A stretch of DNA of 64,000 nucleotides from Candidatus Omnitrophota bacterium (GTDB taxonomy: Bacteria; Omnitrophota; Gorgyraeia; B26-G9): assembly GCA_018817165.1 (NCBI GenBank), contig JAHITY010000128.1:5161-69160 (forward strand), in the 5' to 3' direction. Positions 3,835-51,066 of the stretch are shown in pieces; positions within the stretch are counted from its first letter, which is position 1; each line of letters begins with the position of its first letter. The position numbers were made by a program, and so were the translations under genes. The notes beneath the pieces were generated by a model that made no database searches, had not been told where the DNA came from, and worked only from the letters and a program-made list of their open reading frames with translations.

Positions 3835-4014
3835 ATGGAAAATATAAATTTGATTCAAGCCCTAAAGCAAGTTAAAGAAGAACGGGGCTATACCTTGTAT
3901 GATTTATCTAAGAAATTGGATATACAGGTCTCTACGGTTTCTCGCTGGTTTAAAACAAATAGAATTAATCGGGTTTACGCGGAGTTAGTAAAAGAAAAAC
4001 TAAAACTTTTTTGA
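3835..4014 (+). CDS. Small HTH DNA-binding protein (59 aa, XRE-like). It is not in the ORF track, which has a 60-aa cutoff
   Basis: MENINLIQALKQVKEERGYTLYDLSKKLDIQVSTVSRWFKTNRINRVYAELVKEKLKLF. It has a helix-turn-helix (LYDLSKKLDIQVSTVSRW) and lies between the two amt-glnK modules. Confidence 0.45.
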   Translation: MENINLIQALKQVKEERGYTLYDLSKKLDIQVSTVSRWFKTNRINRVYAELVKEKLKLF

Positions 4015-4078
4015 TTTTTTTTAAATAATATTTCTCAGTTAATTAATCAGTTCCATAACCAAAGGAGGGAAGATTATA

Positions 4079-5419
4079 ATGGGCAAGTTTAGTAAAATTG
4101 TTGGTATTAGTATGGCAACGGTCTTAACAATTTTCATGATAAGTCCGTTCGCGTTTGCCGCAGATACCAGCATGGCAGAAGTAGTAAGAGGTTTGGATAC
4201 TGTCTGGGTTTTGATCGCGGCGTTTCTGGTTTTTTTTATGCAGGCTGGTTTTGGCATGGTAGAAGCGGGTTTTATCCGAGCGAAAAATACCTGTAATATT
4301 TTAACTAAAAATTTTCTTGATTTTTGCATGGCTTCAATTGGTTTTTTTGTTTTTGGTTATGCGATTATGTTTGGTACGGGTAATGGTTTTATGGGCATGC
4401 AGGGCTGGTGCTTATCTGGAGCGCAAAGCGGAGCAAATATTCCATTAGCTGCTTTTTGGCTGTTTCAGGCTGCTTTTTGCGGAGCGGCAGCAACAATTGT
4501 TGCCGGCGGCATGGCAGAGAGAATGAAGTTTGTGTCATATCTTGCTTATTCATTTATAATCTCGGCATTTATTTATCCTATAGTAGGGCATTGGGTATGG
4601 GGCGGAGGCTGGTTAAGCGGATTAGGCTTTGCTGATTTTGCTGGTTCAACTGTTGTTCATGCGGTGGGCGGTTTTGCCGCATTGATCGGAACAATAATTT
4701 TAAAACCAAGAGAAGGTAAATATAATAAAGATGGTTCGGCAAACGCGATTTCCGGGCATTCTATTCCTTTGGCTTCTTTGGGTGTATTTATTCTTTGGTT
4801 TGGCTGGTTTGGTTTTAATCCCGGTTCAACGCTGGGAGTGGGCAATGGAGATTTAATTGCTCGCGTTGCGATAAATACAAATTTAGCAGCAGCTGCCGGA
4901 GGGATTGTGGCAATGCTCACAGTTTGGAAAATGTTTGGTAAACCTGATTTATCAATGGCAATGAATGGGGCCTTAGCTGGTCTTGTGGCAATTACCGCTC
5001 CTTGTGCTTTTGTCGATTCTTGGGCAGCGATTGTGATTGGCGCGGTTGGCGGAGTATTGGTGGTATTGGCTGTAGTTTTACTGGATAAATTACATATTGA
5101 TGATCCTGTCGGCGCTTTTCCTGTTCATGGAGTAAATGGAGTTTGGGGTACACTATCAGTTGGAATTTTTGGTAAACAGGCTCTGGGTCTTGCGCATGAG
5201 GGATTAATTTATGGCGGTGGATTTACGCAGTTAGCAATTCAGCTTTTGGGGGTTGCTACTGTTGCTGTGTTTATTTTGATCACTATGGGAACTGTGTTTA
5301 AAATTCTTAACAGTACTATTGGTTTAAGAGTTTCTCGAGAAGAAGAATTAAGAGGGCTTGATATTTGCGAGCATGGTATGGAATCGTATGCTGGTTTTCA
5401 GATTTTTGTTACAGAATAA
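4079..5419 (+). CDS. amtB: Ammonium transporter Amt (copy 2)
   Basis: 446 aa paralog. [36 protein letters not shown] upstream. Confidence 0.93.
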
Positions 5420-5433
5420 AAGGGAGGGTTTAT

Positions 5434-5775
5434 ATGAAATTAATTATTGCGATGATTCAGCCGTATAAATTGCCGGATGTAAAGCAGGCGCTTTTTGAGG
5501 CAGGGGTGCATAAAATGACGGTAACCAATGCGCTGGGCTGCGGACAGCAAAAGGGTTTTACTGAGACATACCGCGGAGTTATTCATGAGGTGAATCTGCT
5601 TAAAAAAATTAAACTGGAAATCGCGGTTAATGCGGATTTTGTCCAGCCGACAATTGACGCGATTATTAAAGGAGCAAGAACCGGTAATATCGGAGATGGA
5701 AAGATTTTTGTCCTGGATATGCCGGAATGCATCCGTATTCGTACCGGAGAAAAGGGCAAAGAAGCTATTGGGTAA
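5434..5775 (+). CDS. glnK: Nitrogen regulatory protein P-II (GlnK-type, copy 2)
   Basis: 113 aa, about 85% identical to copy 1. The ORF track starts at 5365, but the homologous MKLIIAMIQ start at 5434 has SD AAGGGAGGG. Confidence 0.93.
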
Positions 5776-5872
5776 GAATTTTATTGACAAGTTACCAGAA
5801 AATTGATAAAGTTACTTTAATCATATAGGCACAAAGAAGTGCTTAAAAATGAGGCATAATGAAAAAGACAAT

Positions 5873-5912
5873 GGTGTTCTTTTGGTTGTATAAAAGAACG
5901 CCATTTTTATTT
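5873..5912 (+). terminator. Terminator-like hairpin between glnK2 and glnN
   Basis: GGTGTTCTTTT-GGTTGTAT-AAAAGAACGCC (11 bp with one G.U) followed by ATTTTTATTT. Confidence 0.4.
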
Positions 5913-5958
5913 ACAAATTAGATTTTAAATTATGAATTAAAACAATAAGGAGGAATTT

Positions 5959-8061
5959 ATGGCAAGTGTAACTAAAATTTTTGGGGAGCTGACTTTTAGT
6001 AAAAAAGTCATGGCGGAAAAGTTAAGCAAGGATGTGTATAGTAAATTACTGGCAACTATCGAAGGCGGACAAGCGCTGGATGAGTCAATTGCCGGTGATG
6101 TGGCTCATGCAATGAAGGAATGGGCAATTGAAAACGGAGCAACCCATTTCACTCATTGGTTTCAACCGCAACGCGGCGGCACTGCGGAAAAACATGATGC
6201 TTTTCTGAGCTATGGTAAGAATGGCGAAATAGTTGACAGATTATCAGCCAGACAGCTTATTCAATCAGAGCCTGATGCATCATCATTTCCATCAGGGGGA
6301 ATGCGTTCTACTTTTGAAGCACGTGGATATACTGCTTGGGACCCGACATCTCCCGCGTTTTTATTAGAAGCGGGTGATACCAAGACTTTGGTAATCCCAT
6401 CTGTTTTCTTATCCTGGACAGGTGATGTTTTAGATCTAAAGACTCCGATGCTGCGTTCAATGAAAGCAGTTAGCAAAGCAGCGCTTAGATTGCAGGGACT
6501 GTTGGGTAATAAAAAAGTTAAATCAATTAAAGTTTTTGGCGGACCAGAACAAGAATATTTTCTTTTCTCAAAGCAACTTTTTGAAACGCGTCCGGACTTA
6601 ATTATTTGCGGACGGACTTTATTCGGTGCTCAGCCGGCAAAAGGCCAGCAAATGGAAGATCATTATTTTGGCGCGATCAAATCAAAAGTAATTGAGTTTA
6701 TGGAAGATTTTGATAATGAATTGTACCGCAGAGGAATTCCCGCGAAAACTCGTCATAATGAAGTTTCGCCAAACCAGTTTGAAATCGCTCCTTTATATGA
6801 AGAGGTAAATTTGGCAATAGATCATAATCTGCAATTAATGGATATTATCCAAAAAGTCGCTGATCGTTATGATTTGGTTGCTGTGCTTCATGAAAAACCG
6901 CTGGGCGGCGTAAATGGTTCGGGAAAACATTTTAATATGTCGATCGGTGATAATACGGGCGCTAATTATTTTGAGCCATCAAGCAGTCCTCAGAATAATC
7001 TGATTTTTCTCCTCTCTTTAGGCGCGCTTATGCTGGGTGTTGACAAATTTGGCGGATTATTAAGGGGTGTGGTTGCTGATGCGGGAAATGATCATCGCTT
7101 GGGTGCTAATGAAGCTCCGCCGGCAATTATCTCAGTTTATCTGGGTGAATATCTTGATGCTATTCTTAATGAAATCGAGGGAATAGGCGCGGTTACTGAT
7201 AAAAAACTCTCGGAAATTTATTTAGGGCTGCAAGATTTGCCAAAAGTAGCAAAAGATACTTCTGATAGAAATAGAACATCACCATTGGCTTTTACTGGCA
7301 ATAAATTTGAGTTCAGAGCAGTGGGTTCATCACAGAACTGTGCTGAGGCAGCTACTTTATTAAATATGCTTATGGCTTATGGATATAATGAAATTGCTGA
7401 TGGAATTGAGAAAAGTACAGCAAAATCAGATGCTAAAGCAATTGAAGTATTAGAAAAAGTATTGAAAAAAACAAAACATGTGCGGTTTGAGGGAAATAAT
7501 TATTCCGAAAAATGGCATAAAGAAGCAGCCAAGCGCGGATTGCCAAATACAAAAAATACTCCTGAAGCTTTAGAACAGTTTTTACAAAAAGATGTAATTA
7601 AATTGTATGAAAGCATGGGTATTTTAACTGAAAAAGAAGTTCATTCAAAAATCGAAATTAAACTTGAAGCCTATAATAAAATTAAGGAAATCGAGTTTAA
7701 AACAGCAATGAATATGGCTAAAACATTGGTGATGCCGGCGATATTAAAGCAGATTGGATTACTTGCTGACGCGAATGCTGGAATAAAATCAGCTGGAATT
7801 AAAACAATAAGCAGCATTGCTTCAGATATAAAAGAAGCGAATAAAGTTTATGAGGCATTACAGGTTGGAATCAGTGGTTTGAATAAAGAATTAACAATGG
7901 CAGCAAAGGCTGATGATGAGTTGAAGAAATCAAAACTCATGGCTGGAAAATGTGTTGCTGCTTTAGATAAGCTAAGGGTTGCGGTAGATACAGCTGAAGA
8001 ATTAGTTGCTGATGAACTTTGGCCAATGGCAAAATATCAGGAACTATTGCTGGTTTTATAA
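5959..8061 (+). CDS. glnN: Glutamine synthetase type III (GlnN)
   Basis: 700 aa. N-terminal KEWAIENGATHFTHWFQP block characteristic of GSIII. Catalytic NGSGKHFNMS. The size matches GSIII rather than GSI. Confidence 0.88.
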   Translation: MASVTKIFGELTFSKKVMAEKLSKDVYSKLLATIEGGQALDESIAGDVAHAMKEWAIENGATHFTHWFQPQRGGTAEKHDAFLSYGKNGEIVDRLSARQLIQSEPDASSFPSGGMRSTFEARGYTAWDPTSPAFLLEAGDTKTLVIPSVFLSWTGDVLDLKTPMLRSMKAVSKAALRLQGLLGNKKVKSIKVFGGPEQEYFLFSKQLFETRPDLIICGRTLFGAQPAKGQQMEDHYFGAIKSKVIEFMEDFDNELYRRGIPAKTRHNEVSPNQFEIAPLYEEVNLAIDHNLQLMDIIQKVADRYDLVAVLHEKPLGGVNGSGKHFNMSIGDNTGANYFEPSSSPQNNLIFLLSLGALMLGVDKFGGLLRGVVADAGNDHRLGANEAPPAIISVYLGEYLDAILNEIEGIGAVTDKKLSEIYLGLQDLPKVAKDTSDRNRTSPLAFTGNKFEFRAVGSSQNCAEAATLLNMLMAYGYNEIADGIEKSTAKSDAKAIEVLEKVLKKTKHVRFEGNNYSEKWHKEAAKRGLPNTKNTPEALEQFLQKDVIKLYESMGILTEKEVHSKIEIKLEAYNKIKEIEFKTAMNMAKTLVMPAILKQIGLLADANAGIKSAGIKTISSIASDIKEANKVYEALQVGISGLNKELTMAAKADDELKKSKLMAGKCVAALDKLRVAVDTAEELVADELWPMAKYQELLLVL

Positions 8062-8098
8062 GGATTAGTTTAGTTGATAATTAACAATTAGGATCTAA

Positions 8099-8135
8099 AG
8101 AGCGATACTTTAAAAAAGTATCGCTCTTATGTCCA
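8099..8135 (+). terminator. Intrinsic terminator after glnN
   Basis: AGAGCGATACT-TTAAAAAA-GTATCGCTCT, an 11-bp perfect stem followed by TAT. Confidence 0.5.
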
Positions 8136-8156
8136 TTAAAAAGTAACAAAATATTC

Positions 8157-8240
8157 ATAATAATGACTCCAAAAGTGCCTGCTTGGCCGCAGTCATTTTG
8201 GACTAAATCCCTGCCAAAAAGCGGCGGGATCATTTAAAGG
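8157..8240 (+). promoter_or_regulatory. N-leader repeat unit, modules A+B, upstream of the amidotransferase gene
   Basis: ATAATAATGACTCC, hairpin A TCCAAAAGTGCCTGC-TTGGCC-GCAGTCATTTTGGA (8168..8202), hairpin B CCTGCC-AAAAAGC-GGCGGG, then ATCATTTAAAGG and ATG 8251. Confidence 0.6.
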
Positions 8241-8250
8241 ACATTTAAAA

Positions 8251-8979
8251 ATGATATATTTTCTTGAACACGAACCAATCGAAGGCCCGGGGATGTTAAA
8301 GCCTTTGTTTGAAAATAATGGTTTTCTTACTTCGGTAATCAAGCTTTATGATAATCAGGATTTACCGCAGGACTTTGATTCAATAGAAGCAATTGTAAGT
8401 CTTGGCGGCCCAATGAATGTTTATCAAGAAGAGGTTTATCCTTTTTTAAAAAAAGAAGATGAATTCCTTAAAAAAATTATTAAGCTAGATATCCCTTGTT
8501 TGGGTATATGTCTTGGCTCGCAATTAATCGCTAAAGCGGAAAAAGCGCAAGTTAAGAAAGCGGAAAAAGAAGAAATCGGCTGGTTTAAAGTCTCGTTAAC
8601 TGAACATGGCAAGAAAGATGATTTATTCCATCTGGTAAATGAGCAACTTGAAGTTTTTCAATGGCATTCAGATACTTTTAGCGTTCCGGTTGGCGGGGTT
8701 TTATTGGCGCAGGGTTCTGTTTGCCGCAATCAGGCGTTTAGAATAGGTAATAATGTTTATGGATTGCAGTTTCATCTGGAAGTTACGGATAAAGAAGTTT
8801 TTGATTGGACTGGCAAATATTTTAATATTGCGGATTCAGAAAAACAGGAATACGCGAAAGATATGCTGTCAAAATATAGCGAAATAAAAAAAGATTTTGA
8901 GCTGCAAATGGATGTTATTGGCGCGAATTTTCTTAAAATTATTGAGAAGAGAAAGATCGCTGTGGCACAGGAAGTTTAA
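8251..8979 (+). CDS. Class I glutamine amidotransferase-like protein (stand-alone GATase1 domain)
   Basis: Catalytic-Cys motif GICLGSQLIA, and a downstream His in QFHLEV. 242 aa. Confidence 0.7.
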   Translation: MIYFLEHEPIEGPGMLKPLFENNGFLTSVIKLYDNQDLPQDFDSIEAIVSLGGPMNVYQEEVYPFLKKEDEFLKKIIKLDIPCLGICLGSQLIAKAEKAQVKKAEKEEIGWFKVSLTEHGKKDDLFHLVNEQLEVFQWHSDTFSVPVGGVLLAQGSVCRNQAFRIGNNVYGLQFHLEVTDKEVFDWTGKYFNIADSEKQEYAKDMLSKYSEIKKDFELQMDVIGANFLKIIEKRKIAVAQEV

Positions 8980-9016
8980 AAAATTTTAAATATCAGTGCC
9001 CAAAAATTAGGCAAAT

Positions 9017-9342
9017 TAAAATAATGATTCCCGAATCAGCAGCTAGTCGCTGCTTCTCGGGCTAAATTTCCCGCCAGAAAACAGCGGGATAAACGAGCAG
9101 GCTGACTTGACGTCGCATAGAACGTTCCGTAAGTCAGGCTAAATAATAATGATTCCAAAATATCTGCTTGGCCGCAGCTATTTCGGACTAAATTCGAGCA
9201 GGCTGACTTGACGTCGCATAGAACGTTCCGTAAGTCAGGCTAAATAATAATGATTCCGAAAGTATCTGCTTGGCCGCAGCTATTTCGGACTAAATTCGAG
9301 CAGGCTGACTTGACGTCGCATAGAACGTTCCGTAAGTCAGGC
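9017..9342 (+). repeat. Tandem array of 3 N-leader repeat units (A'+B+C, A+C, A+C) upstream of the Fis-like gene and gltBD
   Basis: Units are at 9017..9139, 9142..9240 and 9243..9342, with a period of about 101 nt. The C loop here is TCGCATAGAACGTT. It ends TCTCATTTAAGGGGAT followed by ATG 9359. Confidence 0.7.
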
Positions 9343-9358
9343 TCTCATTTAAGGGGAT

Positions 9359-9622
9359 ATGAGCGCATACACAGATAAAATTAGTATTCTCCAAGAACAA
9401 ATAAAGGATGTTGAGACTTTTTTTCTAAAAAAAGATACAAAACATTTATATAAACACATATTGGAAATAGTCGAAAAACCTTTGATTGAAATGGTTTTAA
9501 AATCAACAAAAGGCAATCAGAAAAAAGCGGCGGTGCTTTTGGGGATTAACCGAAATACATTGTTTGTTAAAATTAAAAAACTTAAGATAAACGCTAAAGA
9601 ATTCAAAGATGCTTCAGATTGA
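9359..9622 (+). CDS. Fis-family (HTH_8) DNA-binding mini-protein
   Basis: 87 aa. C-terminal [24 protein letters not shown] is a Fis/NtrC-type helix-turn-helix. It lies 37 nt upstream of gltB on the same strand. Confidence 0.6.
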
Positions 9623-9658
9623 AAAGCAAAATTCTGAAAAAGAAAGGAATTATTCCGA

Positions 9659-12600
9659 ATGAAGTATAAACATTTACCTGCCAAGCAGGGGCTTTATGAC
9701 CCTAGCTTTGAAAAAGATGCTTGCGGTGTTGGGTTTGTTTGCAATATCAAGGGAGTTAAATCCAATCAGATAATTAAAGATGGATTGACTGTTTTAAGGC
9801 GTATGGCGCATCGTGGTGCCGTGGGCGCTGATCCTAATACCGGGGACGGTGCGGGTCTGCTGATTCAGATGCCGCATAAGTTTTTGGAGAAGGCGGCTGC
9901 TCAGGCAAAGATTAAATTACCGGAATTCGGGTTTTATGGCAGTGGTCTGGTGTTTTTGCCAACAGTTAAAAAAGAACGGGATATCTGCAAGCTTAATTTT
10001 GAAAAAATTATTGAGCAGCAGGGACAGATACTGCTTGGCTGGCGGAAAGTCCCGGTTGATAATTCCTGTATTGGCCCAGTGGCACAGGAGTCTGCTCCGA
10101 TCATCGAGCAGGTATTTATTGCGCGAAATGCCCAAATCCAAGATCCTATGGATTTTGAAAGAAAACTTTATGTTATTAGAAAACTTATTGAAAATTTTGT
10201 CCGCGGGGCTGATCTAAAACAAAAATCTTATTTCTATGTTTCTAATTTATCGTATAAAGTCCTTTCCTATAAAGGATTGCTAATGCCGCATCAGGTTGAT
10301 AAATTCTTTTTGGATTTAAAAGATAAAAGCATCGAAAGTGCTTTATGTTTAGTTCATTCTCGTTATAGTACTAATACTTTTCCTACTTGGGATTTGGCAC
10401 AGCCGTTTCGTTTTTTAGCGCATAATGGAGAAATAAATACGGTTAGAGGTAATATAAACTGGATGCAGGCACGGGAAGGTTTGTTGAAAAGTGAATTATT
10501 TGGGAAAAATATTGAGCAAATGAAACCAATTATTGTTCCGGGCGGAAGTGATTCCGCGACTTTGGATAATGCTTTGGAATTATTACTGCTTTCCGGCAGG
10601 TCTTTGCCGCATGTTATGATGATGCTTGTCCCCAGCGCATGGGAAAACAGTACTTTGATGGATAAAGAACTGCGCGATTTTTATAAATATCATGCTTGTT
10701 TTATGGAACCTTGGGATGGCCCGGCGGCAATTGCTGTGACCGATGGGATTAGAATCAGTGCCGCGCTTGATCGCAACGGTTTACGTCCGGCGCGTTATAT
10801 AGTAACAAAAAACGATTTTATTGTTATGGCCTCTGAAGTTGGGGTTTTGGACATTGCTCCTAAGGATATTGCTTATTCCGGAAGACTTGAGCCGGGAAAA
10901 ATGTTTTTTATTGATACTGAGCAAGGAAGAATTATTAATGACGAAGAATTGAAAAAAAATATTGCTATTTCTCAGCCTTATGGGAAATGGATAGATAGTA
11001 ATTTAGTGGAATTAGCCAGTTTAAAACCAGCTAAGGCTGATAAAAGTAAACAGGAAGATATTCTTACTTGTTTGAAAAGTTTTGGCTACAGTCGAGAAGA
11101 TTTAAAGATGATCATAAAGCCCATGGCTCAAACCGGTCAAGAGCCGACTCATTCTATGGGTAATGATGCTCCGCATGCTATTTTATCGAAAAAGCCGCAA
11201 GTGCTTTATTCCTATTTTAAACAGCTTTTTGCTCAGGTTACCAATCCGGCAGTTGATCCGATCAGGGAAGAAATTGTTATGAGCTGGCAAAGTTTTGTTG
11301 GCGCGCAAAAAAATATTCTAGAGGAAACTCCCGAACATTGCCATACTCTTCGGGTAAAAAACCCCCTATTATCAGACGCTGATCTGGCTAAGATAAAAAA
11401 TGTAAATGCTAAAGGGTTTAAAGCTAAAACAATCTCTCTTTTATTTAATCTGAATGAAAAGAAAAGTTTTATGCAGGCGATTAAAGGGATTTGCGATCAG
11501 GCAGTATTGGCTATTCAGCAGGGGTATACGTTTATTATTTTAAGTGATCGCGGTACTGATAAAGATCAGGCGGCAATTCCCGCGCTTTTAGCAACCGGAG
11601 CGGTGCATCATCATTTAGTCAGAAAAGCCCTGCGTACCCAGATTGGAATCGTAGTGGAGAGTGCAGAGCCAAGAGAGGTGCATCATTTTGCCCTTTTGTT
11701 CGGATATGGTGCTGATTGTATTAATCCTTATTTAATATTTAGGACATTAGATTATTTAATTAAAGAAAAAGAATTAGATATTAGTTTTGAGGAAGCAGCA
11801 AAAAATTATATTAATGCTGTAAAAAAAGGAATATTGAAAATAACTTCTAAAATGGGTATTTGTACTTTGCAAAGTTATAAAGGCGCCCAGATTTTTGAAG
11901 CTTTGGGATTGCATGATCAGGTAATTGAGCGCTGTTTTAAAGGAACTCCTTCGCGCATCGGAGGAGCTGATTTTGAAATTATCCGACAGGAAACTATTTT
12001 AAAACATAAACATGCTTATCCTGAGCGGGAAATCGGTGTCACTGATTTAGCTGTTGGTGGTGTATATCAATGGAAAAGAGATGGAGAAGCGCATCTTTGG
12101 AACCCTCAGAGTATTACTGCTTTGCAGGATGCGACCCGCACAGGCAGTTATGCTAAATATCAGGACTTTGCTAAACTAATAAATGATCAAGCGCAGCAGC
12201 CGATTACTTTGCGCAGTTTGCTTGAATTTAAAGCTAAAGAATCTATTCCGGTTGAGCAGGTTGAGCCTGTGAAAAAAATTGTTAAACGGTTTGTTACCGG
12301 AGCAATGAGTTTTGGTTCAATCAGTAAAGAAATACATGAGTCTTTGGCAATTGTGATGAATCGCTTGGGTGGAATGTCCAATACCGGAGAAGGCGGAGAA
12401 GATCCAGCTCGTTTTAACCGTTTGCCAAATGGTGATTTAAAACGCAGCGCGATCAAGCAGGTTGCGTCCGGACGTTTCGGAGTTACCACAAATTATTTGG
12501 TTAATGCTGATGAATTGCAGATTAAAGTTGCCCAAGGCGCAAAGCCGGGTGAGGGCGGTCAGTTGCCGGGACATAAGGTTAGTTCGATTATTGCTAAGAC

Positions 12601-14182
12601 TCGTTATACAACTCCTGGAGTAACCTTGATCTCTCCTCCGCCGCATCATGATATTTATTCAATTGAAGACCTGGCGCAGTTAATATTTGATTTGAAAAAT
12701 GTTAATCCTCGGGCGCGAATCAGTGTGAAACTTGTTTCAGAAATCGGAGTAGGCACGGTTGCGGCTGGAGTGGCTAAAGGCCATGCGGACATGATTTTGA
12801 TTTCAGGAGGTGATGGCGGAACAGGTGCATCTCCGATGAGTTCAATCCGCCATGCTGGTTTGCCTTGGGAACTGGGGCTTGCGGAAACTCATCAGACTTT
12901 GGTCTTAAATGATTTGAGAAGCCGCGTACGTTTGCAGACAGACGGACAAATGCGTACTGGCCGAGATGTGGCAATTGCCGCTATTTTAGGTGCTGAAGAA
13001 TATGGCTTTTGTACTACTCCTTTAATTGTTATGGGCTGTGTGATGTTAAGACATTGCCATTTGAATAATTGTAATCTGGGCATAGCTACTCAGGATGAAA
13101 TTTTAAGAAAAAGATTCAGAGGCAGAACTGAATATTTAGAAAATTATTTTAATTTTGTGGCGCATGAGTTAAGAAATATTATGGCCAGTCTAGGGGTAAA
13201 AACAATCAATGAGCTTGTGGGCAGAACAGATCTATTGCAGGTTAATTCTAAAATAATTCCTTGGAAAGCAAAAGATATTGATTATTCAAAAATATTGTAT
13301 AAACCTCAGGTTTCCCAGAATGTCAGTGTGTTTTGTACGCAAAAACAGGATCATCAAATATCTAAAGTTTTAGATAGAACGCTGATCAAATTAGCTAAGC
13401 CGGCTTTAGAGCATAAAAAGCAGATTAAGGAAACCTTGAAGATTAAGAATTCAGACCGGACTACTGGAGCGATGCTCAGCGGTGAAGTTGCTAAACTATA
13501 TGGTGAAGACGGGCTTTATGAAGATACAATCAATTTTAAATTTAAAGGTGAAGCTGGTCAGAGTTTTGGGGCGTGGTTGATCAAAGGAATTACTTTTGAG
13601 TTGGAAGGGATTGCTAATGATTATGTAGGTAAAGGGGCATTTGGCGGGAAAATAATTATTTATCCTAATGCGGATAGCAGCTTTATACCCGAGGAAAATA
13701 TCATTATCGGGAATACCACTTTTTATGGAGCAATTGCCGGAGAAGCTTATATTAATGGTATTGCTGGAGAAAGGTTTTGTATTCGTAATTCAGGATTGCA
13801 CGCGGTTGTCGAAGGAGTCGGTGATCATGGTTGTGAGTATATGACCGGGGGAAGGGTTGTTATATTGGGTAAAACCGGGATAAACTTCGGCGCTGGGATG
13901 AGCGGAGGGATTGCTTATATCTATGATGAGGATAATATGTTTAAACAAAGCTGTAATATGAGTATGGTTGAACTGCAAGTGCTTGATGCGGATGATAAGC
14001 AGATGATTTCTAGTCTGATTCGTAATCATTGCAAGTACACGCAAAGTCCGAAAGCAAAGAAGATATACGATAACTTTGTTTCTGAGAGTGATAAATTTAT
14101 AAAAGTAATGCCTTTGGAATATAAACGTATTTTAAGTCAAAAAGAACTGGGCAAAAAACTAGGTCTAGAAAAATCAATGTAG
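9659..14182 (+). CDS. gltB: Glutamate synthase large subunit
   Basis: 1507 aa. Ntn-amidotransferase N-terminus with the catalytic Cys in CGVGFVCNIKG, an FMN/Fe-S central domain, and a C-terminal GXGXG-repeat domain. Confidence 0.96.
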   Translation: MKYKHLPAKQGLYDPSFEKDACGVGFVCNIKGVKSNQIIKDGLTVLRRMAHRGAVGADPNTGDGAGLLIQMPHKFLEKAAAQAKIKLPEFGFYGSGLVFLPTVKKERDICKLNFEKIIEQQGQILLGWRKVPVDNSCIGPVAQESAPIIEQVFIARNAQIQDPMDFERKLYVIRKLIENFVRGADLKQKSYFYVSNLSYKVLSYKGLLMPHQVDKFFLDLKDKSIESALCLVHSRYSTNTFPTWDLAQPFRFLAHNGEINTVRGNINWMQAREGLLKSELFGKNIEQMKPIIVPGGSDSATLDNALELLLLSGRSLPHVMMMLVPSAWENSTLMDKELRDFYKYHACFMEPWDGPAAIAVTDGIRISAALDRNGLRPARYIVTKNDFIVMASEVGVLDIAPKDIAYSGRLEPGKMFFIDTEQGRIINDEELKKNIAISQPYGKWIDSNLVELASLKPAKADKSKQEDILTCLKSFGYSREDLKMIIKPMAQTGQEPTHSMGNDAPHAILSKKPQVLYSYFKQLFAQVTNPAVDPIREEIVMSWQSFVGAQKNILEETPEHCHTLRVKNPLLSDADLAKIKNVNAKGFKAKTISLLFNLNEKKSFMQAIKGICDQAVLAIQQGYTFIILSDRGTDKDQAAIPALLATGAVHHHLVRKALRTQIGIVVESAEPREVHHFALLFGYGADCINPYLIFRTLDYLIKEKELDISFEEAAKNYINAVKKGILKITSKMGICTLQSYKGAQIFEALGLHDQVIERCFKGTPSRIGGADFEIIRQETILKHKHAYPEREIGVTDLAVGGVYQWKRDGEAHLWNPQSITALQDATRTGSYAKYQDFAKLINDQAQQPITLRSLLEFKAKESIPVEQVEPVKKIVKRFVTGAMSFGSISKEIHESLAIVMNRLGGMSNTGEGGEDPARFNRLPNGDLKRSAIKQVASGRFGVTTNYLVNADELQIKVAQGAKPGEGGQLPGHKVSSIIAKTRYTTPGVTLISPPPHHDIYSIEDLAQLIFDLKNVNPRARISVKLVSEIGVGTVAAGVAKGHADMILISGGDGGTGASPMSSIRHAGLPWELGLAETHQTLVLNDLRSRVRLQTDGQMRTGRDVAIAAILGAEEYGFCTTPLIVMGCVMLRHCHLNNCNLGIATQDEILRKRFRGRTEYLENYFNFVAHELRNIMASLGVKTINELVGRTDLLQVNSKIIPWKAKDIDYSKILYKPQVSQNVSVFCTQKQDHQISKVLDRTLIKLAKPALEHKKQIKETLKIKNSDRTTGAMLSGEVAKLYGEDGLYEDTINFKFKGEAGQSFGAWLIKGITFELEGIANDYVGKGAFGGKIIIYPNADSSFIPEENIIIGNTTFYGAIAGEAYINGIAGERFCIRNSGLHAVVEGVGDHGCEYMTGGRVVILGKTGINFGAGMSGGIAYIYDEDNMFKQSCNMSMVELQVLDADDKQMISSLIRNHCKYTQSPKAKKIYDNFVSESDKFIKVMPLEYKRILSQKELGKKLGLEKSM

Positions 14183-14219
14183 TAGGTTGTAACAAGAGTT
14201 TTTTGTTTTAGGAGGATTT

Positions 14220-15671
14220 GTGATGAAAGATGTAAAAGCGTTTTTAAAAATTAAGCGTAAACAGTCAGAATACAGACCAGTGCGGGAACGGATCCGTGAT
14301 TTTCAGGAAGTTGTTGTTTTGCGCCCTAGCGAATATACGCAGGAGCAGGCAGACAGATGTATGGATTGCGGCACACCGTTTTGTCATTCTGCGTGTCCTT
14401 TGGGCAATGATATTCCGGAATGGAATGATTTGGTTATGAAAGGTCAATGGGAAAAGGCTTATCTGTCGCTTAGCGCGACAAATAATTTGCCGGAAGTTAC
14501 CGGAAGGCTTTGTCCCGCGCTTTGTGAATTTGCCTGCGTTTTAGGTTTGGGTGATGATCCGGTTACGATTCGGGAAAATGAATTGGGAATTATTGAGCAC
14601 GCTTTTAAGCATGGATATGTAAAACCTAATCCCCCGAAAAAACGGACAAATAAAAAAGTCGCGGTTATTGGTTCTGGTCCGGCTGGACTTGCTTGCGCTG
14701 ATCAGCTGAATAAAGCGGGGCATAATGTGACTGTGTTTGAAAAGGATAAAAAAATTGGAGCAATACTGCGCTATGGGATTCCTGATTTTAAAATTGAAAA
14801 ATGGCTGCTTGACCGCAGATTGAAAATTTTCAAACAAGAGGGTATAAAATTTGTAACAGGCGTAAACGTCGGGATTGATTTAAAGGTTAGTGAGTTAAAC
14901 AATGATTTTGACGCGGTCTGTTTAACCGGAGGGGCTCATACTCCTCGCGACTTAAATATTCCCGGTCGAGATTTGCAGGGAATTCATTTTGCTATGGATT
15001 TCCTGGTGCAATCTAATAAAAAAATCAGCGGAGAAAAGTTTAAGCTAAATGAGTTTATTGATGCTAAAAATAAGAATGTTGTTATTATCGGCGGAGGAGA
15101 TACCGGCGCTGATTGTGTGGGCGTATCTAATCGTCAGGGGGCTAAGAGTATTATCCAAATAGAAGTCATGCCTAAGCCTCCGCAATCAAGAACCGAGGAT
15201 TTTCCTTGGCCTAAATACCCGATGGTTTTAAAAACATCAAGTTCTCATGAAGAAGGCGGTAAACGTCATTGGGCGCTTCTGACCAAAGAATTTATTGGCA
15301 AAGATGGTCATGTAACTAATTTACAATGCGTGGAAGTTGAATTTGTGAAAGATGAAAAAACCGGGCGCAATAGTCTCAAAGAAATTTCCAATAGTTCTTT
15401 TATGATTGAAGCTGATTTGGTTATCCTTGCGGTTGGTTTTGTTCATCCTGTCCATGGCGGACTCTTATCGGAATTAAAAGTGGATTTGGATGAGCGGGGT
15501 AATGTTAAAACAAATGAACAGTTTATGACCAGTAAAAAAGGCTTTTTTGCTGCCGGAGACATCCGGCGGGGACAGTCTTTAATCGTCTGGGCGATTGCTG
15601 AAGGCAGAAAAGCCGCGCATTATATGGATGCTTATTTAACCGGTAAGGAAAGTCTGCTGCCGATTAAGTAG
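14220..15671 (+). CDS. gltD: Glutamate synthase small subunit (NADPH-dependent)
   Basis: 483 aa. Fe-S Cys cluster CMDCGTPFCHSACPLGNDIPEW, and a dinucleotide fold VAVIGSGPAGLACA. Confidence 0.92.
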   Translation: MMKDVKAFLKIKRKQSEYRPVRERIRDFQEVVVLRPSEYTQEQADRCMDCGTPFCHSACPLGNDIPEWNDLVMKGQWEKAYLSLSATNNLPEVTGRLCPALCEFACVLGLGDDPVTIRENELGIIEHAFKHGYVKPNPPKKRTNKKVAVIGSGPAGLACADQLNKAGHNVTVFEKDKKIGAILRYGIPDFKIEKWLLDRRLKIFKQEGIKFVTGVNVGIDLKVSELNNDFDAVCLTGGAHTPRDLNIPGRDLQGIHFAMDFLVQSNKKISGEKFKLNEFIDAKNKNVVIIGGGDTGADCVGVSNRQGAKSIIQIEVMPKPPQSRTEDFPWPKYPMVLKTSSSHEEGGKRHWALLTKEFIGKDGHVTNLQCVEVEFVKDEKTGRNSLKEISNSSFMIEADLVILAVGFVHPVHGGLLSELKVDLDERGNVKTNEQFMTSKKGFFAAGDIRRGQSLIVWAIAEGRKAAHYMDAYLTGKESLLPIK

Positions 15672-36106: not shown

Positions 36107-36814
36107 ATGGTAAAACAAGTAAAATCAGAAAAATCATATATCAATGCTTTGAGTAAAATCAGTAAAGCAATTACAAGTGATCTTTATCTTGAAGATATGT
36201 TAAAGCTTATTGTAACTGTTACCGCGAATGTTATGCACGCGAAAATTTGCGCGCTTTGGCTATTAGATGAAAAGAACCAAACTTTAAAAATTAAAGCTAC
36301 TCAAGCTTTGAGCAGTGAATATCTGAAGGAAAGATCAATTAATGTTGGGGAAGGCGTTGTCGGAATGGTTGCGAAAACTAAGCAGCCGATTATTATTGCT
36401 GATGTTCTTTTAGATCCGCAGTATAAAGAAAAAAAATTAGCAAAAAAAGAAAAGTTTGTTTCAATGCTTAGCGTTCCGATGATGGTTAAACAAAAAGTGA
36501 TCGGTGTTATTAATTGTTATACTACAAAAAAATACGATTTTGAAAAAAGCGATGTCGAGGTTTTAATGACTGTGGCTAATCAAGCAGCTGTTGCAATCGA
36601 AAATACGGAGCTGTTAGTTAAGACTAGAGTTATTCAGGAAGAATTGGAAACAAGAAAAAAAGTTGAAAAAGCAAAAGGGATATTGATGAAGGATCAGAAT
36701 GTTGATGAAGATGAAGCTTATAATATGCTGAGAAAATCAAGCATGTCTAAGCGTATATCTATGAAAGATATTGCTGAAGCAATCATTCTTTCTTTCGAGA
36801 TTAAGAAGGGGTAA
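36107..36814 (+). CDS. GAF-ANTAR regulator (RNA-binding antitermination-type output domain)
   Basis: N-terminal GAF-like domain. C-terminal VEKAKGILMKDQNVDEDEAYNMLRKSSMSKRISMKDIAEAII is a clear ANTAR signature. The ORF track start 36077 overlaps pyrG, so ATG 36107 is used. Confidence 0.75.
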   Translation: MVKQVKSEKSYINALSKISKAITSDLYLEDMLKLIVTVTANVMHAKICALWLLDEKNQTLKIKATQALSSEYLKERSINVGEGVVGMVAKTKQPIIIADVLLDPQYKEKKLAKKEKFVSMLSVPMMVKQKVIGVINCYTTKKYDFEKSDVEVLMTVANQAAVAIENTELLVKTRVIQEELETRKKVEKAKGILMKDQNVDEDEAYNMLRKSSMSKRISMKDIAEAIILSFEIKKG

Positions 36815-37064
36815 TTAAAAAAAATATCAGAAAATATTTTTTAAAAAATAAAAAAGAACGTAATGATGAAAAAATTTTAAAAAGTTTTTTCGTTTTTTTT
36901 TATTTTTTTCTTGAAATTAGTATTTATAATGTTGTATATTATAAATTGTAGATACAATATATAGTACAAACATATATTGTGCTTGCATTAGAAGACGTAC
37001 CAAGATATTGTGTAGGGGCAAACTTTTAGTTTAAAATATTACTGAAAGAAAGGGGGTGAATATT

Positions 37065-37202
37065 TTGGTAGTCAAAAAGAAAAAAGTAGCAAAGAAGGCA
37101 GTGGCTAAGAAAGTGGTAAAAAAAGTGGTAAAAAAAGCAGTGGCTAAGAAAGTAGTAAAAAAAGTAGCAAAGAAAGTAGTAGCTAAGAAAAAGAAAAAAT
37201 AA
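37065..37202 (+). CDS. Lysine-rich micro-protein (45 aa, KKxV/A repeats), histone-H1-tail-like. TTG start, not in the ORF track
   Basis: SD AAAGGGGGTG 7 nt upstream of TTG. The open frame is (M)VVKKKKVAKKAVAKKVVKKVVKKAVAKKVVKKVAKKVVAKKKKK*. The other strand is closed. Confidence 0.45.
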   Translation: MVVKKKKVAKKAVAKKVVKKVVKKAVAKKVVKKVAKKVVAKKKKK

Positions 37203-37228
37203 ACTTGGCTAGTTCATCTTTGATGAAT

Positions 37229-37340
37229 ACAGGATCCCAATTTTGATTAATTGAACAAGGATGTTATCAATTCCCAAAGGCGGGGAAATTAAGCGATCAA
37301 TGACCCGAAATTTTGTTCCTTGCCTTTGGGAGGGATCAAA
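37229..37340 (+). ncRNA. Candidate structured RNA element in the long leader of the HD-GYP gene
   Basis: Nested inverted repeats GATCCC...GGGATC (outer) and TCCCAAAGGC...GCCTTTGGGA (10 bp). No T-run follows. Confidence 0.25.
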
Positions 37341-37507
37341 GAAAAACTACCTAAAAACCTGCAATAATATTTTGTTCATATCTTTTTTAATATCTTTTGA
37401 TTTATATATTTAATAAGAGTATTTTCTTTCTTGACAATTTTAGCTTTAAAGTTTTAGAATAGGTATTAGATTGAATACGTTCATCGCTTTTCTTAGAAAG
37501 GAAAATA

Positions 37508-38719
37508 ATGAGTGACTTGCCTGAATCGCATGAAAGAATGCTTTTAGAGATTGAACAATTGCGTAAAAGAATAAACGAACTTCAAGGGGCGGAACTGAAG
37601 TTTCAAAAAGCAGAGCAAGAATTGAGGCAGGCTAAGGAATATGCTGAATTTGTTTTTCGATCTACTCCAAACGCGATTTTTACAATTGATCCTAACCGGA
37701 GTATAACCAGTTGGAATAATAAAGCTGAAGAAATTACGGGTTATTCTTTTAAGGAGATAATTGGAAAGCAGTGTACTGTTTTTGCGGATAGCCCTTGTAA
37801 GGATATGTGCGCGGTTTTTTCGGATAATGTCGAGAAACCTATTTTTAACGCGGAATGTTCGATTAAAAGAAAAGATGGGAAAATAATTGTTATTTCAAAA
37901 AATGCGGAAATATTAAAGGATGAGCATGGAAATACAATCGGCGCTATAGAATCATTTGAAGATATTACCGGAAGAAAAAATGAAGAGCAATCCTTTCAAA
38001 AATCTTATCAGACTTTAGAAATGCAGATTCGTGAGAGGACTGCTGAACTTTCTAAAATGAATGAAGCGCTGCTTGTTGAAATCATGCAAAGGAAAAAAGT
38101 TCAGAAAAATTTTGAGGATGGCAATGAAAAATTGCAGCGTGTATTAAATGAAACAATTAGTGCTCTAGCCTTTACAGTTGAAAAAAGAGATCCCTATACC
38201 GCTGGACATCAGGAACGTGTAACTCACTTGGCAGAAGCTATTGCCAGGGAAATGAAATTACCCGCGGATCAGATATTAGGGGTGAAGACTGCGGCAATGA
38301 TTCATGATATTGGAAAAATTTGTGTTCCCGCGGAAATTTTAAGCAAGCCCTCTAAGCTAACTACGTATGAATTTAATATTATTAAAGCTCATCCAGAAGT
38401 AGGTTATGATATATTAAAGGAAATTGAATTTCCTTGGCCAGTTTCTTCAATTGTTGTGCAGCATCATGAGAGAATGGATGGAAGTGGATACCCAAATTCT
38501 TTAAAAGGTAATGAAATATTAATTGAGGCGCATATTCTAATTGTTGCTGATGTTGTTGAAGCCATGGCTTCGCATCGTCCTTATAGACCTGCATTGGGTA
38601 TTGAGCGAGCTTTAGATGAAATTATTAATAAAAAAGGAATATTGTATAATGTGGATGTTGTAGACGCTTGTATTAAGCTGTTTATGGAGCAGGATTTTAA
38701 GATTGAGCAAATAGTGTAA
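37508..38719 (+). CDS. PAS-domain HD-GYP phosphodiesterase (c-di-GMP)
   Basis: PAS block FRSTPNAIFTIDPNRSITSWN. HD motif MIHDIGKI. HHERMDGSGYP, the GYP motif. Confidence 0.85.
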   Translation: MSDLPESHERMLLEIEQLRKRINELQGAELKFQKAEQELRQAKEYAEFVFRSTPNAIFTIDPNRSITSWNNKAEEITGYSFKEIIGKQCTVFADSPCKDMCAVFSDNVEKPIFNAECSIKRKDGKIIVISKNAEILKDEHGNTIGAIESFEDITGRKNEEQSFQKSYQTLEMQIRERTAELSKMNEALLVEIMQRKKVQKNFEDGNEKLQRVLNETISALAFTVEKRDPYTAGHQERVTHLAEAIAREMKLPADQILGVKTAAMIHDIGKICVPAEILSKPSKLTTYEFNIIKAHPEVGYDILKEIEFPWPVSSIVVQHHERMDGSGYPNSLKGNEILIEAHILIVADVVEAMASHRPYRPALGIERALDEIINKKGILYNVDVVDACIKLFMEQDFKIEQIV

Positions 38720-42164: not shown

Positions 42165-42485
42165 ATGGATATGTTTGAAATATTAGAAAAGTTAATTTTG
42201 GCTGGTGTCGGTTTTGCTAGTTTAACCAAAGAAAAAGCAGAAAAGATTGTTGACGCATTGATTGCTAAAGGAGAGGTTAAAGCTAAAGACAAAAAAGCGA
42301 TATTAAACCGATTGCTTAAGCACACACAAAAACTTGATAAAGATCTTGAGAATAAGATGAGACAGGTATCTTTAAATGTAGTCAAGAACTCGCAAAAACA
42401 AATTGATGCTTTAAATAAAAAATTAGCGCAGTTAAACAAAAGTATGAGCAGCTCAAAAAAAAGTGATAAGAAAAAGAAAAATTAA
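42165..42485 (+). CDS. Phasin-like protein (PHA granule-associated family, PF05597-like), paralog 1
   Basis: LILAGVGFASLTKEKAEKIVDALIAKGEV matches the phasin-family N-terminal block. Confidence 0.55.
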   Translation: MDMFEILEKLILAGVGFASLTKEKAEKIVDALIAKGEVKAKDKKAILNRLLKHTQKLDKDLENKMRQVSLNVVKNSQKQIDALNKKLAQLNKSMSSSKKSDKKKKN

Positions 42486-42513: not shown

Positions 42514-42879
42514 ATGTTTGAATTAATTGAGAAAATTATACTTGCTGGTGTTGGGTTGGCAAATTTAACCAAAGAAAAAGCTGAGAGCCTGGTTGATATG
42601 CTGATTAAAAAAGGTCAAATACAGGCAAAAGATAAAAAAGCTGTTTTAAGCCGCTTACTTAAAAGTACAAAGCAGTTAGATAGTGATCTTGAAAATAAGA
42701 TGAAACAGGTGTCGATAAGTGTGGTTAAGAATTCACAGAAGCAGATTGATGCTTTGAATAAAAAATTAGCACAGCTAGCTAAAAGTTTAGAGGTAGAGAA
42801 GAAAAAAACTAAAGTGGTTAAAGCTGCTCCGGTGGCTGTAAAGAAAAAAGTAAAGGCTAAAGCAAAGAAGAAAGTGTAA
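42514..42879 (+). CDS. Phasin-like protein, paralog 2, with a Lys/Ala-rich histone-H1-like tail
   Basis: About 70% identical to paralog 1, plus a KKKTKVVKAAPVAVKKKVKAKAKKKV tail as in PhaF-type proteins. Confidence 0.55.
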   Translation: MFELIEKIILAGVGLANLTKEKAESLVDMLIKKGQIQAKDKKAVLSRLLKSTKQLDSDLENKMKQVSISVVKNSQKQIDALNKKLAQLAKSLEVEKKKTKVVKAAPVAVKKKVKAKAKKKV

Positions 42880-50687: not shown

Positions 50688-50766
50688 CGGGGCATGGCTC
50701 AGCTTGGCTTAGAGCGCCTGGTTTGGGACCAGGATGTCGGTGGTTCGAATCCACCTGCCCCGACCA
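50688..50766 (+). tRNA. tRNA-Pro (anticodon TGG), CCA encoded
   Basis: Acceptor CGGGGCA/TGCCCCG, anticodon stem CCTGG/CCAGG with loop TTTGGGA, T-arm GGTGG-TTCGAAT-CCACC, long D-loop. Confidence 0.85.
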
Positions 50767-50851
50767 AAAAATAGTTGTAGAGTTTGGGGAGCAGGACATT
50801 AAAGTATTTTGCTTAGAGCTTATAACTTTGATGTCCTTAGTTTCTAAAAAT

Positions 50852-50928
<77 letters not shown>

Positions 50929-50988
50929 ATTTAACAGGCTTAACCATCCTTCTCTATAATTTATTTTTGGATTAAAATTAATTTATGT

Positions 50989-51066
50989 GGTGGATGTAGC
51001 TCAGTTGGTTAGAGCTCATGATTGTGGTTCATGAGGCCGGGGGTTCGAGTCCCCTCATCCACCCCA
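50989..51066 (+). tRNA. tRNA-His (anticodon GTG) with genomically encoded G-1 and C73, CCA encoded
   Basis: G-1 + GTGGATG/CATCCAC + C + CCA. Anticodon stem CATGA/TCATG with loop TTGTGGT. T-arm GGGGG-TTCGAGT-CCCCT. Confidence 0.85.

Follow-up and report, generated by a model that had tools for sequence, protein, structure and literature searches.

A predicted lysine-rich small gene with a candidate ANTAR-docking RNA domain behind a GAF-ANTAR regulator gene in Candidatus Omnitrophota

Introduction

In dual-function small RNAs, such as SgrS/SgrT, RNAIII/delta-haemolysin and SR1/SR1P, a small peptide and a structured regulatory RNA share one short transcript. Small, basic and poorly structured peptides that regulate glutamine synthetase, and whose synthesis RNA elements couple to nitrogen status, are also known from circuits that contain glutamine synthetase, P-II and Amt, with cyanobacterial IF7/IF17 and Methanosarcina sP26 as examples. 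Here we describe a locus on a stretch of 64,000 nucleotides from a Candidatus Omnitrophota bacterium (GenBank assembly GCA_018817165.1, contig JAHITY010000128.1, positions 5,161 to 69,160 of the forward strand), referred to below as the window and numbered from its first letter. The locus consists of a lysine-rich frame of 45 codons, a structured leader in front of it and an RNA domain with an ANTAR-type motif behind it; together we call them the unit. The unit lies directly behind the gene for a GAF-ANTAR regulator.

ANTAR targets consist of two hairpins whose hexaloops have A as their first and G as their fourth base; a linker of 2-25 nt lies between the hairpins, and the second one competes with a terminator (PMC3369931, PMC8934654, PMC8164766). 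The linker is 5-12 nt long in eut targets (PMC8164766, PMC3369931). A terminator is not always involved: sites without one are known among translational ANTAR targets, and the decoy RNAs EutX/Rli55 of Enterococcus and Listeria carry an ANTAR site without one (PMC5821096).

The locus resembles each of these systems in part. Like EutX/Rli55, the unit would be an independently transcribed RNA with an ANTAR dual-hairpin site free of a terminator, and an element upstream on the same transcript could set the availability of that site. Unlike in EutX/Rli55, the upstream element is a predicted translated polylysine frame with a start-hiding leader, and not a B12 riboswitch, and it matches no Rfam family; the site is embedded in a three-way junction, and sequestration by it is putative; the regulator has a GAF sensor domain, and its apparent regulon concerns ammonium and glutamine, not ethanolamine. 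Where SgrS/SgrT-type RNAs have a base-pairing seed, the unit seems to have a docking site for a protein; its coding and docking activities are both predicted. In contrast to IF7/IF17 and sP26, which have a specific sequence and a fixed length, the peptide is of low complexity, ranges from 12 to 86 residues and has no sequence relation to them; its tie to glutamine synthetase is that of the same apparent regulon only.

Our interpretation, to which we give about even confidence, is that the small gene encodes a translated polycationic peptide on a dual-purpose transcript that also docks the GAF-ANTAR protein, and that it is an accessory member of an ANTAR nitrogen circuit. The unit is best filed as a combination of two known kinds of element, namely low-complexity polycationic small peptides and ANTAR-binding RNAs without a terminator.

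A lysine-rich frame with a strong Shine-Dalgarno site

The frame occupies positions 37065-37202 (+ strand, as are the regulator gene, the parts of the gap, the nitrogen leaders and the phasin-like paralogs described below) within an intergenic gap of 693 nt (36815-37507). It runs from a TTG start (37065-37067) to a TAA stop (37200-37202), and its product, MVVKKKKVAKKAVAKKVVKKVVKKAVAKKVVKKVAKKVVAKKKKK, has 23 K among 45 residues and ends in KKKKK. The start lies 8 nt past the GGGGG core of the Shine-Dalgarno site AAAGGGGGTGA (37049-37059). A first-pass annotation of this DNA had reported the frame, its Shine-Dalgarno site, the TTG start and the 45 codons, all of which we could confirm from the sequence, in a gap that it gave as about 700 nt. 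The mechanical list of open reading frames begins this frame at GTG 37056 instead, a start that we rejected because it sits inside the Shine-Dalgarno site. TTG 37065 is taken as the start because of this overlap and because relatives that use GTG space it 7 nt from the same core.

Across all six frames of the 64 kb, the highest lysine content of any 30-residue stretch, 16 of 30, is found in the small gene; the sole other stretch with at least 12 lysines per 30 residues is the tail of a phasin-like protein (42781-42870). The Shine-Dalgarno site has the strongest predicted 16S pairing in the window: when energies were computed against a generic 16S tail, it reached -16.6 kcal/mol, whereas the 38 long genes of the window have a best value of -14.0 and a median of -6.95. 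The DNA of the small gene is a tandem repeat with a period of 39 nt (13 codons) and 2.8 copies. Lysine richness, Shine-Dalgarno strength and the tandem repeat together argue that the frame is more than a product of chance.

The phasin-like tail lies in one of two adjacent paralogous small proteins (42165-42485 and 42514-42879) that have sub-threshold phasin/DUF6847 matches and lysine-rich tails. The first-pass annotation had compared the small gene to the second of these paralogs; the two do share their composition, and the likeness goes no further.

Conservation in Omnitrophota and coding signature

Scanning genomes with the GAF-ANTAR protein yielded 80 loci, nearly all of them recorded as Candidatus Omnitrophota or related uncultured PVC/Planctomycetia, two at 94% identity. 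A complete lysine-rich frame is present in 11 of the 80 loci, approximately 170-310 nt behind the ANTAR gene, and in a twelfth (L015) the unit is interrupted by the end of the contig. We also scanned metagenomes with a pattern derived from the downstream RNA only, independently of the ANTAR gene. All three true matches (3/3) show the same order of ANTAR gene, lysine-rich frame and RNA domain; a fourth match (L084) was discarded as a chance match within a GC-rich coding region. In total, 14 Omnitrophota loci besides the window carry the unit, 13 with complete frames and one cut (L015), and the GAF-ANTAR gene is found directly upstream of the unit in 15/15 loci, window included.

Conservation of the Shine-Dalgarno site, start and frame in related genomes had been named as a check by the first-pass annotation. 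The frame passes this check: 13 relatives retain it together with a non-ATG start and a Shine-Dalgarno site at conserved spacing, with lengths that vary widely. The 14 complete copies have 12, 19, 20, 21, 23, 24, 27, 33, 40, 40, 45, 55, 64 and 86 codons. The sequence GGGGGTGA occurs in every copy read, followed by TTG 8 nt or GTG 7 nt past the GGGGG core. The predicted products of all 14 frames begin with M(V/A)(V/A/T/K)KK and end in KKK or KKKKK.

Only six amino acids are specified by the 495 internal codons of the 14 frames: K (294), V (111), A (81), T (5), E (2) and P (2); about 50-65% of each peptide is lysine, and the remainder is valine and alanine. The single-step neighbors of AAA/AAG, namely R, N, Q and I, number zero among these codons. 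Purine-only AGA and GGA never appear and GAA does so twice, in contrast to the frequent GTA and GCA. Valine and alanine codons use all four third bases (GTA/GTG/GTT/GTC and GCA/GCT/GCG/GCC), with invariant first and second positions. The distance from start to stop is a multiple of three in 14/14 frames, and in the longer copies both alternative reading frames are full of stops. Since AGA/GGA codons and R/N/Q/I residues are missing while GTA/GCA are common, selection appears to act on amino acids and not on purine content. We conclude from these patterns that a group of Omnitrophota has, in all probability, conserved the frame as a real small gene. It bears the signatures of selection expected of a peptide that is translated and selected as a peptide, which a purine-rich spacer does not fit, and its length appears to drift through in-frame gain and loss of repeat units.

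These patterns also bear on a non-coding interpretation, in which the A/G-rich repeat would be a spacer without structure or the part of a regulatory RNA that binds a protein (e.g., an Hfq-type A-R-N tract) and the open frame would be incidental. The dominance of A-ending codons, the near absence of C from the tract, its nature as tandem-repeat DNA and the absence of the peptide forms from a collection of 15 billion proteins all agree with it. However, such a tract would not account for the strongest Shine-Dalgarno site of the window at the correct spacing from a conserved start, for lengths that are in frame in 14/14 copies with a conserved stop context, for the amino-acid constraint that the near absence of AGA, GGA and GAA beside common GTA and GCA points to, or for valine and alanine codons that vary in the third position and not in the first two. 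We therefore regard a non-coding tract as highly improbable.

Peptide composition and protein family searches

No curated family of proteins or RNAs includes the small gene. Pfam gives no match to the 45-aa peptide, whose sole NCBIfam match, to a valine-tRNA ligase tail, is at chance level (E 4.9). A peptide homology search returned 1,557 word-sharing candidates, none with E <= 0.001; low complexity defeats the statistics of such a search, and its outcome is uninformative. The 64-aa relative was compared with three histone-like models (PF07382, NF038052 and NF038053). It scored 19.3 bits against the Hc2 model PF07382 (cut-off 40; E 0.0013) and 11.7 bits against NF038052 (cut-off 135; E 0.22); the third histone-like score was 10.6 bits with a cut-off of 80.

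The first-pass annotation had likened the product to histone H1, Hc1 or AlgP, a likeness that turned out to be one of composition, with profile matches below the family cut-offs; membership in an H1/Hc-like family is not supported. In chlamydiae, repeats make the length of Hc2 variable, and hctA is under tight translational repression. A stand-alone nucleoid protein of the histone H1/Hc1/Hc2 type, or a ribosome-associated polycation, with no tie to RNA elements or to the ANTAR gene, would explain the composition and the KKxV/AKK repeats, which are like those of H1-like tails. Like Hc1 (HctA) and Hc2 (HctB), the peptide is K/A-rich and built of repeats, the longest relatives have weak Hc2 matches and the host belongs, according to record titles, to the PVC group, as do the chlamydiae. 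On the other hand, those matches are far under the cut-offs and the window peptide has no meaningful match at all. The peptide is five to ten times shorter than Hc1 and Hc2, has neither the N-terminal domain of Hc1 nor any other folded domain and is nearly devoid of R, S, T and P; some versions have as few as 12-24 residues. In 15/15 loci, including the 3/3 that were found without the use of the ANTAR gene, it comes together with the RNA domain and the ANTAR gene, and the unit is missing from most Omnitrophota ANTAR loci. Thus, a free-standing histone-like protein is improbable, and the small gene is probably part of an ANTAR control circuit; its constant link to an ANTAR-type RNA and a GAF-ANTAR gene points to a nitrogen circuit in place of the general nucleoid or ribosome polycation that the first-pass annotation had suggested.

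With a net charge of about +23, the peptide is likely to bind polyanions. A short, highly cationic peptide with hydrophobic V/A spacing might also be a membrane-active antimicrobial or toxin, for example a type I toxin silenced by a structured leader, and the leader helix described below would repress translation in the way known from type I toxins. Predatory or parasitic forms occur among Omnitrophota. However, at the alpha-helix angle of 100 degrees the hydrophobic moment does not exceed that of shuffled sequences (0.38 vs 0.50 +/- 0.26, z = -0.4), and the periodicity peaks at 80 degrees; a membrane-active helix is disfavored by this lack of an alpha-helical moment. The peptide has no hydrophobic stretch or segment and no signal peptide, no antisense partner was seen, and the leader helix is missing in several lineages. 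We consider a toxin extremely unlikely.

A three-way-junction RNA domain with an ANTAR-type dual hexaloop

Behind the stop codon, positions 37233-37337 fold into a three-way junction (z = -3.5) that is supported by an alignment of 14 sequences (A2). The outer helix P0 pairs GAUCCC with GGGAUC (37233-38 with 37332-37). It encloses P1 (37250-37271; core AAC-AAGGAU-GUU at 37254-65, with the conserved loop region AC-ANGGAY-GU) and the long hairpin P3, in which CCCAAAGGCGGGGAA pairs with UUCCnnGCCUUUGGG (37272-87 with 37316-31) around a loop that is variable in sequence and length. In A2, the 23 pairs are 92.9% paired and 6 of them have changed on both sides; slid controls all drop to 44-65% paired. 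The domain is 105-130 nt long and begins 30-61 nt past the stop (13 copies measured); by visual reading, this distance is about 56 nt in L010. In 591 kb, a covariance model of the domain (R1) found the 14 known copies only; the rest of the window and 74 other loci gave no second copy. A search of 36800-37520 against Rfam 15 gave no match at gathering score, the best sub-threshold ones being eukaryotic families with E >= 0.29; in the whole window, only three tRNAs pass.

Within the domain, positions 37254-37284 form an ANTAR-type dual hexaloop: P1 (AAC-AAGGAU-GUU) is followed by the 7-nt linker AUCAAUU and by P2 (CCC-AAAGGC-GGG), which overlaps the base of P3 as an alternative fold. The consensus of a published ANTAR alignment is SYAC-AAHGRH-GUDB ... 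RRGY-AAHGDV-GCYY, and the loops AAGGAU, AUGGAU and AAAGGC all occur in that alignment. P1 is paired 100% in the 14 sequences, with an outer pair of AU in 11 and GC in 3, and its loop, A-N-G-G-A-Y, has A1 and G4 in 14/14. The P2 loop AAAGGC has A1 in 14/14 and G4 in 13/14; P2 forms in about 12/14 copies, with 93% of cells paired and one compensatory change from C-G to U-A. Under a strict descriptor of ANTAR sites, P1 must close with AC..GU and P2 with C..G, both loops must read A..G.., no stem may fall below 3 bp and the linker may span 2-25 nt. This descriptor matches the window four times, always on the + strand, where 0.04 matches are expected from 200 dinucleotide-preserving shuffles. In the 12 copies of the unit that it detects, the linker between P1 and P2 is 6-8 nt.

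The site thus shares with classical ANTAR leaders (eutP, nasF, amiE and three leaders in the window) two A1/G4 hexaloop hairpins with P1 closed by AC...GU and P2 by C...G, a linker of 7-8 nt and competition of P2 with a longer hairpin. Unlike in those leaders, the competing hairpin has a variable loop of 28-70 nt and no U-run, whereas most classical sites have a T5 run, and the site follows a coding frame and does not stand ahead of regulated genes. P3 is enclosed by P0, and although P2 overlaps its base, P3 is not a U-tailed terminator; we rejected it as an intrinsic terminator for want of a U-run, which the terminators of this genome do have. The site departs from classical antitermination because no T-run follows it in the 12 descriptor-detected copies. 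There is no terminator-like fold past the domain either, as 37338-37440 folds no better than shuffled sequences (z = +1.26). Pairing of the 3' strand of P3, which contains CCUCC, with the Shine-Dalgarno site of the small gene was likewise rejected, with z from -2.0 to +1.1 relative to shuffles in 13 loci.

The P1 loop raises a further alternative, namely that the RNA domain is a CsrA-type site or sponge and the small gene a CsrA-controlled message. ACA(A/U/C/G)GGAUGU in P1 fits the CsrA selection consensus RUACARGGAUGU, with GGA in the loop of a hairpin. However, each domain has a single GGA hairpin, the P2 loop being AAAGGC; the three classical ANTAR leaders share the AC...GU-closed hexaloops, with loops that lack GGA (AUUGUU, AUUGAA and AAAGAA); and the unit strictly adjoins the ANTAR gene. 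Weak evidence also comes from a simple signature search, in which none of the frames of the 64 kb looked like CsrA. A CsrA site is in our view very doubtful.

Between the stop codon and the domain, a small hairpin (37212-37228) carries a conserved CUUUGAU box, and the CAGCTTTGAT block is conserved in an alignment of the whole gap (A1). The fold of this hairpin is not distinct from that of shuffled sequence (z = -0.55).

A probable ANTAR nitrogen regulon

The other three descriptor matches in the window are classical ANTAR leaders in front of nitrogen genes. Leader 1 (hexaloops 946-982; with terminator 946-1010) precedes P-II and Amt genes (1183-3195), leader 2 (hexaloops 3747-3787; with terminator 3747-3825) precedes a second pair of Amt and P-II genes (4079-5775) and leader 3 (hexaloops 5826-5882; with terminator 5826-5915) precedes a gene for type III glutamine synthetase (5959-8061). 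In all three, the second hairpin overlaps a U-tailed terminator. Genes for a glutamine amidotransferase and glutamate synthase follow further downstream (8251-15671). The region 946-15671 looks like an ANTAR nitrogen regulon, about 30 kb from the regulator gene.

Nine of the loci that lack the unit (L013, L025, L026, L031, L045, L051, L060, L062 and L068) carry, 31-238 nt behind the ANTAR gene, a classical ANTAR site and a T-run; in L045 (4700-7320) and L060 (4700-7300), the site is followed by an operon of porin-like, Amt and P-II genes. Because classical sites precede Amt, P-II and glutamine synthetase genes and follow the ANTAR gene elsewhere, the GAF-ANTAR family is very probably the nitrogen-assimilation antiterminator of these bacteria. 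By its position, the lysine-rich unit appears to fill the slot that elsewhere holds the principal target of the regulator. It may have replaced a classical leader behind the ANTAR gene, or may derive from one, since lineages without the unit carry a classical site in the same slot. The three leaders of the window, and in several other lineages the one right behind the ANTAR gene, provide a first map of an ANTAR nitrogen regulon in Omnitrophota.

Near the promoters of the three nitrogen leaders, we also observed GTTACC, GTAAC or AAGTTAC boxes (818-850, 3700-3745 and 5780-5815); one example is the inverted AAGTAACGGTTACC. A transcription factor above the level of ANTAR may use these boxes as an operator.

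Predicted transcript boundaries and start-hiding leader

The regulator gene (36107-36814) encodes a protein of 235 aa, identical to MBU1045362.1, with Pfam matches to GAF (1e-23) and ANTAR (2e-20). In alignment A1, the non-coding flanks of the gap are better conserved than the lysine-rich frame itself. An AU-rich hairpin with a run of nine U (36865-36901), located in a block conserved in A1, is the likely terminator of the ANTAR gene. The small gene would then be a separate transcription unit, because the hairpin and U-run end the ANTAR gene. A consensus terminator scan of 36700-37600 found no match; the scan demands three G-C pairs and is uninformative here because the local terminators are AU-rich. 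Indeed, the terminators seen in this genome (36865-36901, ~975-1010, 3770-3825 and 5870-5915) are AU-rich hairpins with long U-runs.

A promoter-like site, TTGAAA-18-TATATT (36911-36940), was found by a promoter scan with 10/12 matches. Its TGTATATTATAAATTGTA block is identical in eight loci and one base off in a ninth. The leader that follows folds with z = -4.0. In the minimum-free-energy fold, a hairpin (36947-36987) pairs ACAAUAUAU with AUAUAUUGU through 17 pairs, 2 of them compensatory. Downstream of it, GACGUACCAAGAUAUU (36994-37009) pairs with 37059-37073 and so covers the TTG and codons 2-3. This predicted start-hiding helix has 15 pairs, with 91.7% of cells paired and 3 pairs changed on both sides; visual reading of the folds gave the variants GUAG/CUAC in L004 and CAC/GUG in L019. 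The helix was not found in the other leader types (L010, L029, L055 and L083), which are short and unstructured, and gating by it would therefore be lineage-specific.

All leader types, the unstructured ones included, have a second G-run (UAGGGGC, UGGGGGU or GUGGGGGU) about 35-55 nt before the Shine-Dalgarno site, at 37010-37019 in the window, 4823-4829 in L029 and 4843-4850 in L055. It could be a stand-by or decoy ribosome site.

The 3' side of the unit is bounded by a second promoter-like site, TTGACA-18-TAGAAT (37431-37460; 11/12 matches), assigned to the gene for a PAS-HD phosphohydrolase that begins at 37508. A similar TTGACA...TAGAAT site is visible in L010 and L082. We also considered an ATG frame of 50 aa (37261-37413) as a gene. 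It was rejected: its apparent Shine-Dalgarno site abuts the ATG, it spans conserved helices and the variable loop, and it is not in the protein database. The frame and its counterpart in L001 (5156-5314), 50-52 aa long, are almost certainly spurious.

A proposed dual-purpose transcript

In the mechanism that we propose, the unit would be a self-contained, strongly expressed transcript from its own promoter. In the lineage of the window, the leader would bury the TTG and the next two codons in the 15-bp helix and gate translation, and the very strong Shine-Dalgarno site would then drive the lysine-rich frame. Past the stop, the three-way-junction RNA would dock the ANTAR protein via its two motif-matching loops and be its regulated target or, like EutX/Rli55, a decoy for it. 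The sequences show that the unit exists, is conserved, has a coding signature and covarying RNA structures, fits the ANTAR motif and is linked to the ANTAR gene; binding by ANTAR, the mode of regulation (target or decoy) and the partner of the peptide are what we infer from this arrangement. The peptide would act by its bulk positive charge on RNA, DNA or another polyanion; its free length and three-letter alphabet speak for a charge-based action independent of sequence.

A bolder form of this proposal is that the unit is a translation-gated protein decoy. Ribosomes on the polylysine frame would set the production or folding of the ANTAR-docking RNA, or the peptide would modulate the ANTAR-RNA complex, and lysine or nitrogen supply would in this way be wired into antitermination at amtB, P-II and glutamine synthetase genes. 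We offer it as a speculative and unlikely, though specific, extension.

The main rival to a functional peptide is a regulatory reading frame. Here, the peptide would be a by-product, and translation or pausing on the frame and its KKKKK-stop would decide the making or folding of the ANTAR-docking domain; lysyl-tRNA supply or translation capacity would feed the regulon, and the RNA would be an EutX-like decoy gated by translation instead of a riboswitch. Several features fit this scheme. The lysine-rich frame is always in cis with the RNA domain; its length ranges from 12 to 86 codons, and yet its ends (MxxKKK and KKKKK-stop) are kept, as largely are the synonymous positions at the end; the small hairpin with the conserved UUUGAU box lies in ribosome reach of the stop; and the start-hiding helix would gate translation in one lineage. 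Lysine is rich in nitrogen, the circuit governs nitrogen assimilation, and EutX provides a precedent (PMC5821096). A frame rich in lysine codons is followed here by the alternative structures P2 and P3, an arrangement that may recall an attenuation leader.

On the other hand, a sensor of codons or tRNA would need no restriction of the non-lysine positions to V/A, with no R, N, Q, I or L. The variable stop-to-domain distance of 30-61 nt and the lack of a U-tailed terminator in the 12 descriptor-detected copies do not give a classical attenuation geometry. No downstream operon for the sensed amino acid was found, the next gene being that for the PAS-HD protein with a promoter of its own, and the post-stop hairpins are not distinct from shuffled sequence. 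We know of no case in which polylysine arrest peptides are established as a sensor in bacteria. A regulatory frame with an inert product is possible and, on balance, rather unlikely.

Several observations weigh against the dual-purpose transcript that we favor. On the side of the peptide, A-ending codons are preferred far beyond their share in the long genes of the window (74% vs 23% for GTA and 72% vs 27% for GCA), and the terminal AAG AAA AAG AAA AAA TAA is, by visual reading, nearly unchanged in most copies. This bias and these fixed codons hint that the RNA, or the act of translation, is under an extra constraint. The version in L010 has 12 residues, which is very short for a working protein. 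On the side of the RNA, P2 is 3 bp only and fails in L005 and L010, no T5 run was found within 80 nt of the site in the 12 descriptor-detected copies and the P1 loop resembles the CsrA consensus mentioned above. A covariance model trained on 19 classical Omnitrophota ANTAR sites only (R2) gave the window site 13.4 bits (E 0.41 for the whole window), the top match outside the training set and not significant alone; the sites of relatives scored 9-15 bits. The start-hiding helix is confined to one sub-lineage, that with window-type leaders, and most ANTAR-gene loci of other lineages are without the unit. Finally, the downstream gene is inconstant, with no match to the HD gene in L006, L029 and L082; because this gene varies, no regulated target of the unit is evident.

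If our interpretation is correct, it adds to the phylum Omnitrophota, whose members are known almost exclusively from metagenomes, a conserved family of small genes that is largely unannotated, and an unusual design in which a polylysine frame is fused to a terminator-less ANTAR-docking RNA beside a regulator of ammonium uptake and glutamine synthesis. With about 430 nt and one protein of 235 aa, the system is compact and testable, both for the gating of decoy RNAs and for the roles of polycationic micro-peptides. Should the translation-gated decoy prove true, it would represent a new input logic for sponge RNAs, in which a small reading frame takes the role of a riboswitch, and the first described role in nitrogen control of a natural bacterial oligolysine peptide.

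Annotation status and the wider window

Ten variants of the peptide, including the 45-aa and 48-aa forms from the window, were all absent from the 15-billion-protein collection, which does hold neighboring proteins of the same records. In L002, L006 and L055, consecutive accessions leave no room for an annotated gene at the position of the unit. In the record of the window, pyrG is MBU1045361.1, the GAF-ANTAR protein is MBU1045362.1 and the HD protein has the number ending in 364, so that MBU1045363.1 is unaccounted for and may belong to something annotated in the gap; L001 has the same pattern. This accession is neither the 45-aa, the 48-aa nor the 50-aa (37261-37413) frame. The description of the small gene as unannotated by the first-pass annotation therefore holds for orthologs in three GenBank records, and for the window itself it is qualified by this one accession. 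The same annotation had attributed the invisibility of the frame to its non-ATG start and its length, which was an assumption: common callers accept TTG starts and frames of 30 aa. A literature search for Omnitrophota together with lysine-rich found no papers.

Nearly all long open reading frames of the window (1-64000) lie on the + strand. Its GC skew stays positive from end to end and adds up to a steady cumulative rise, which suggests that the window lies within one replication arm. The three tRNA genes are clustered at 50688-51063.

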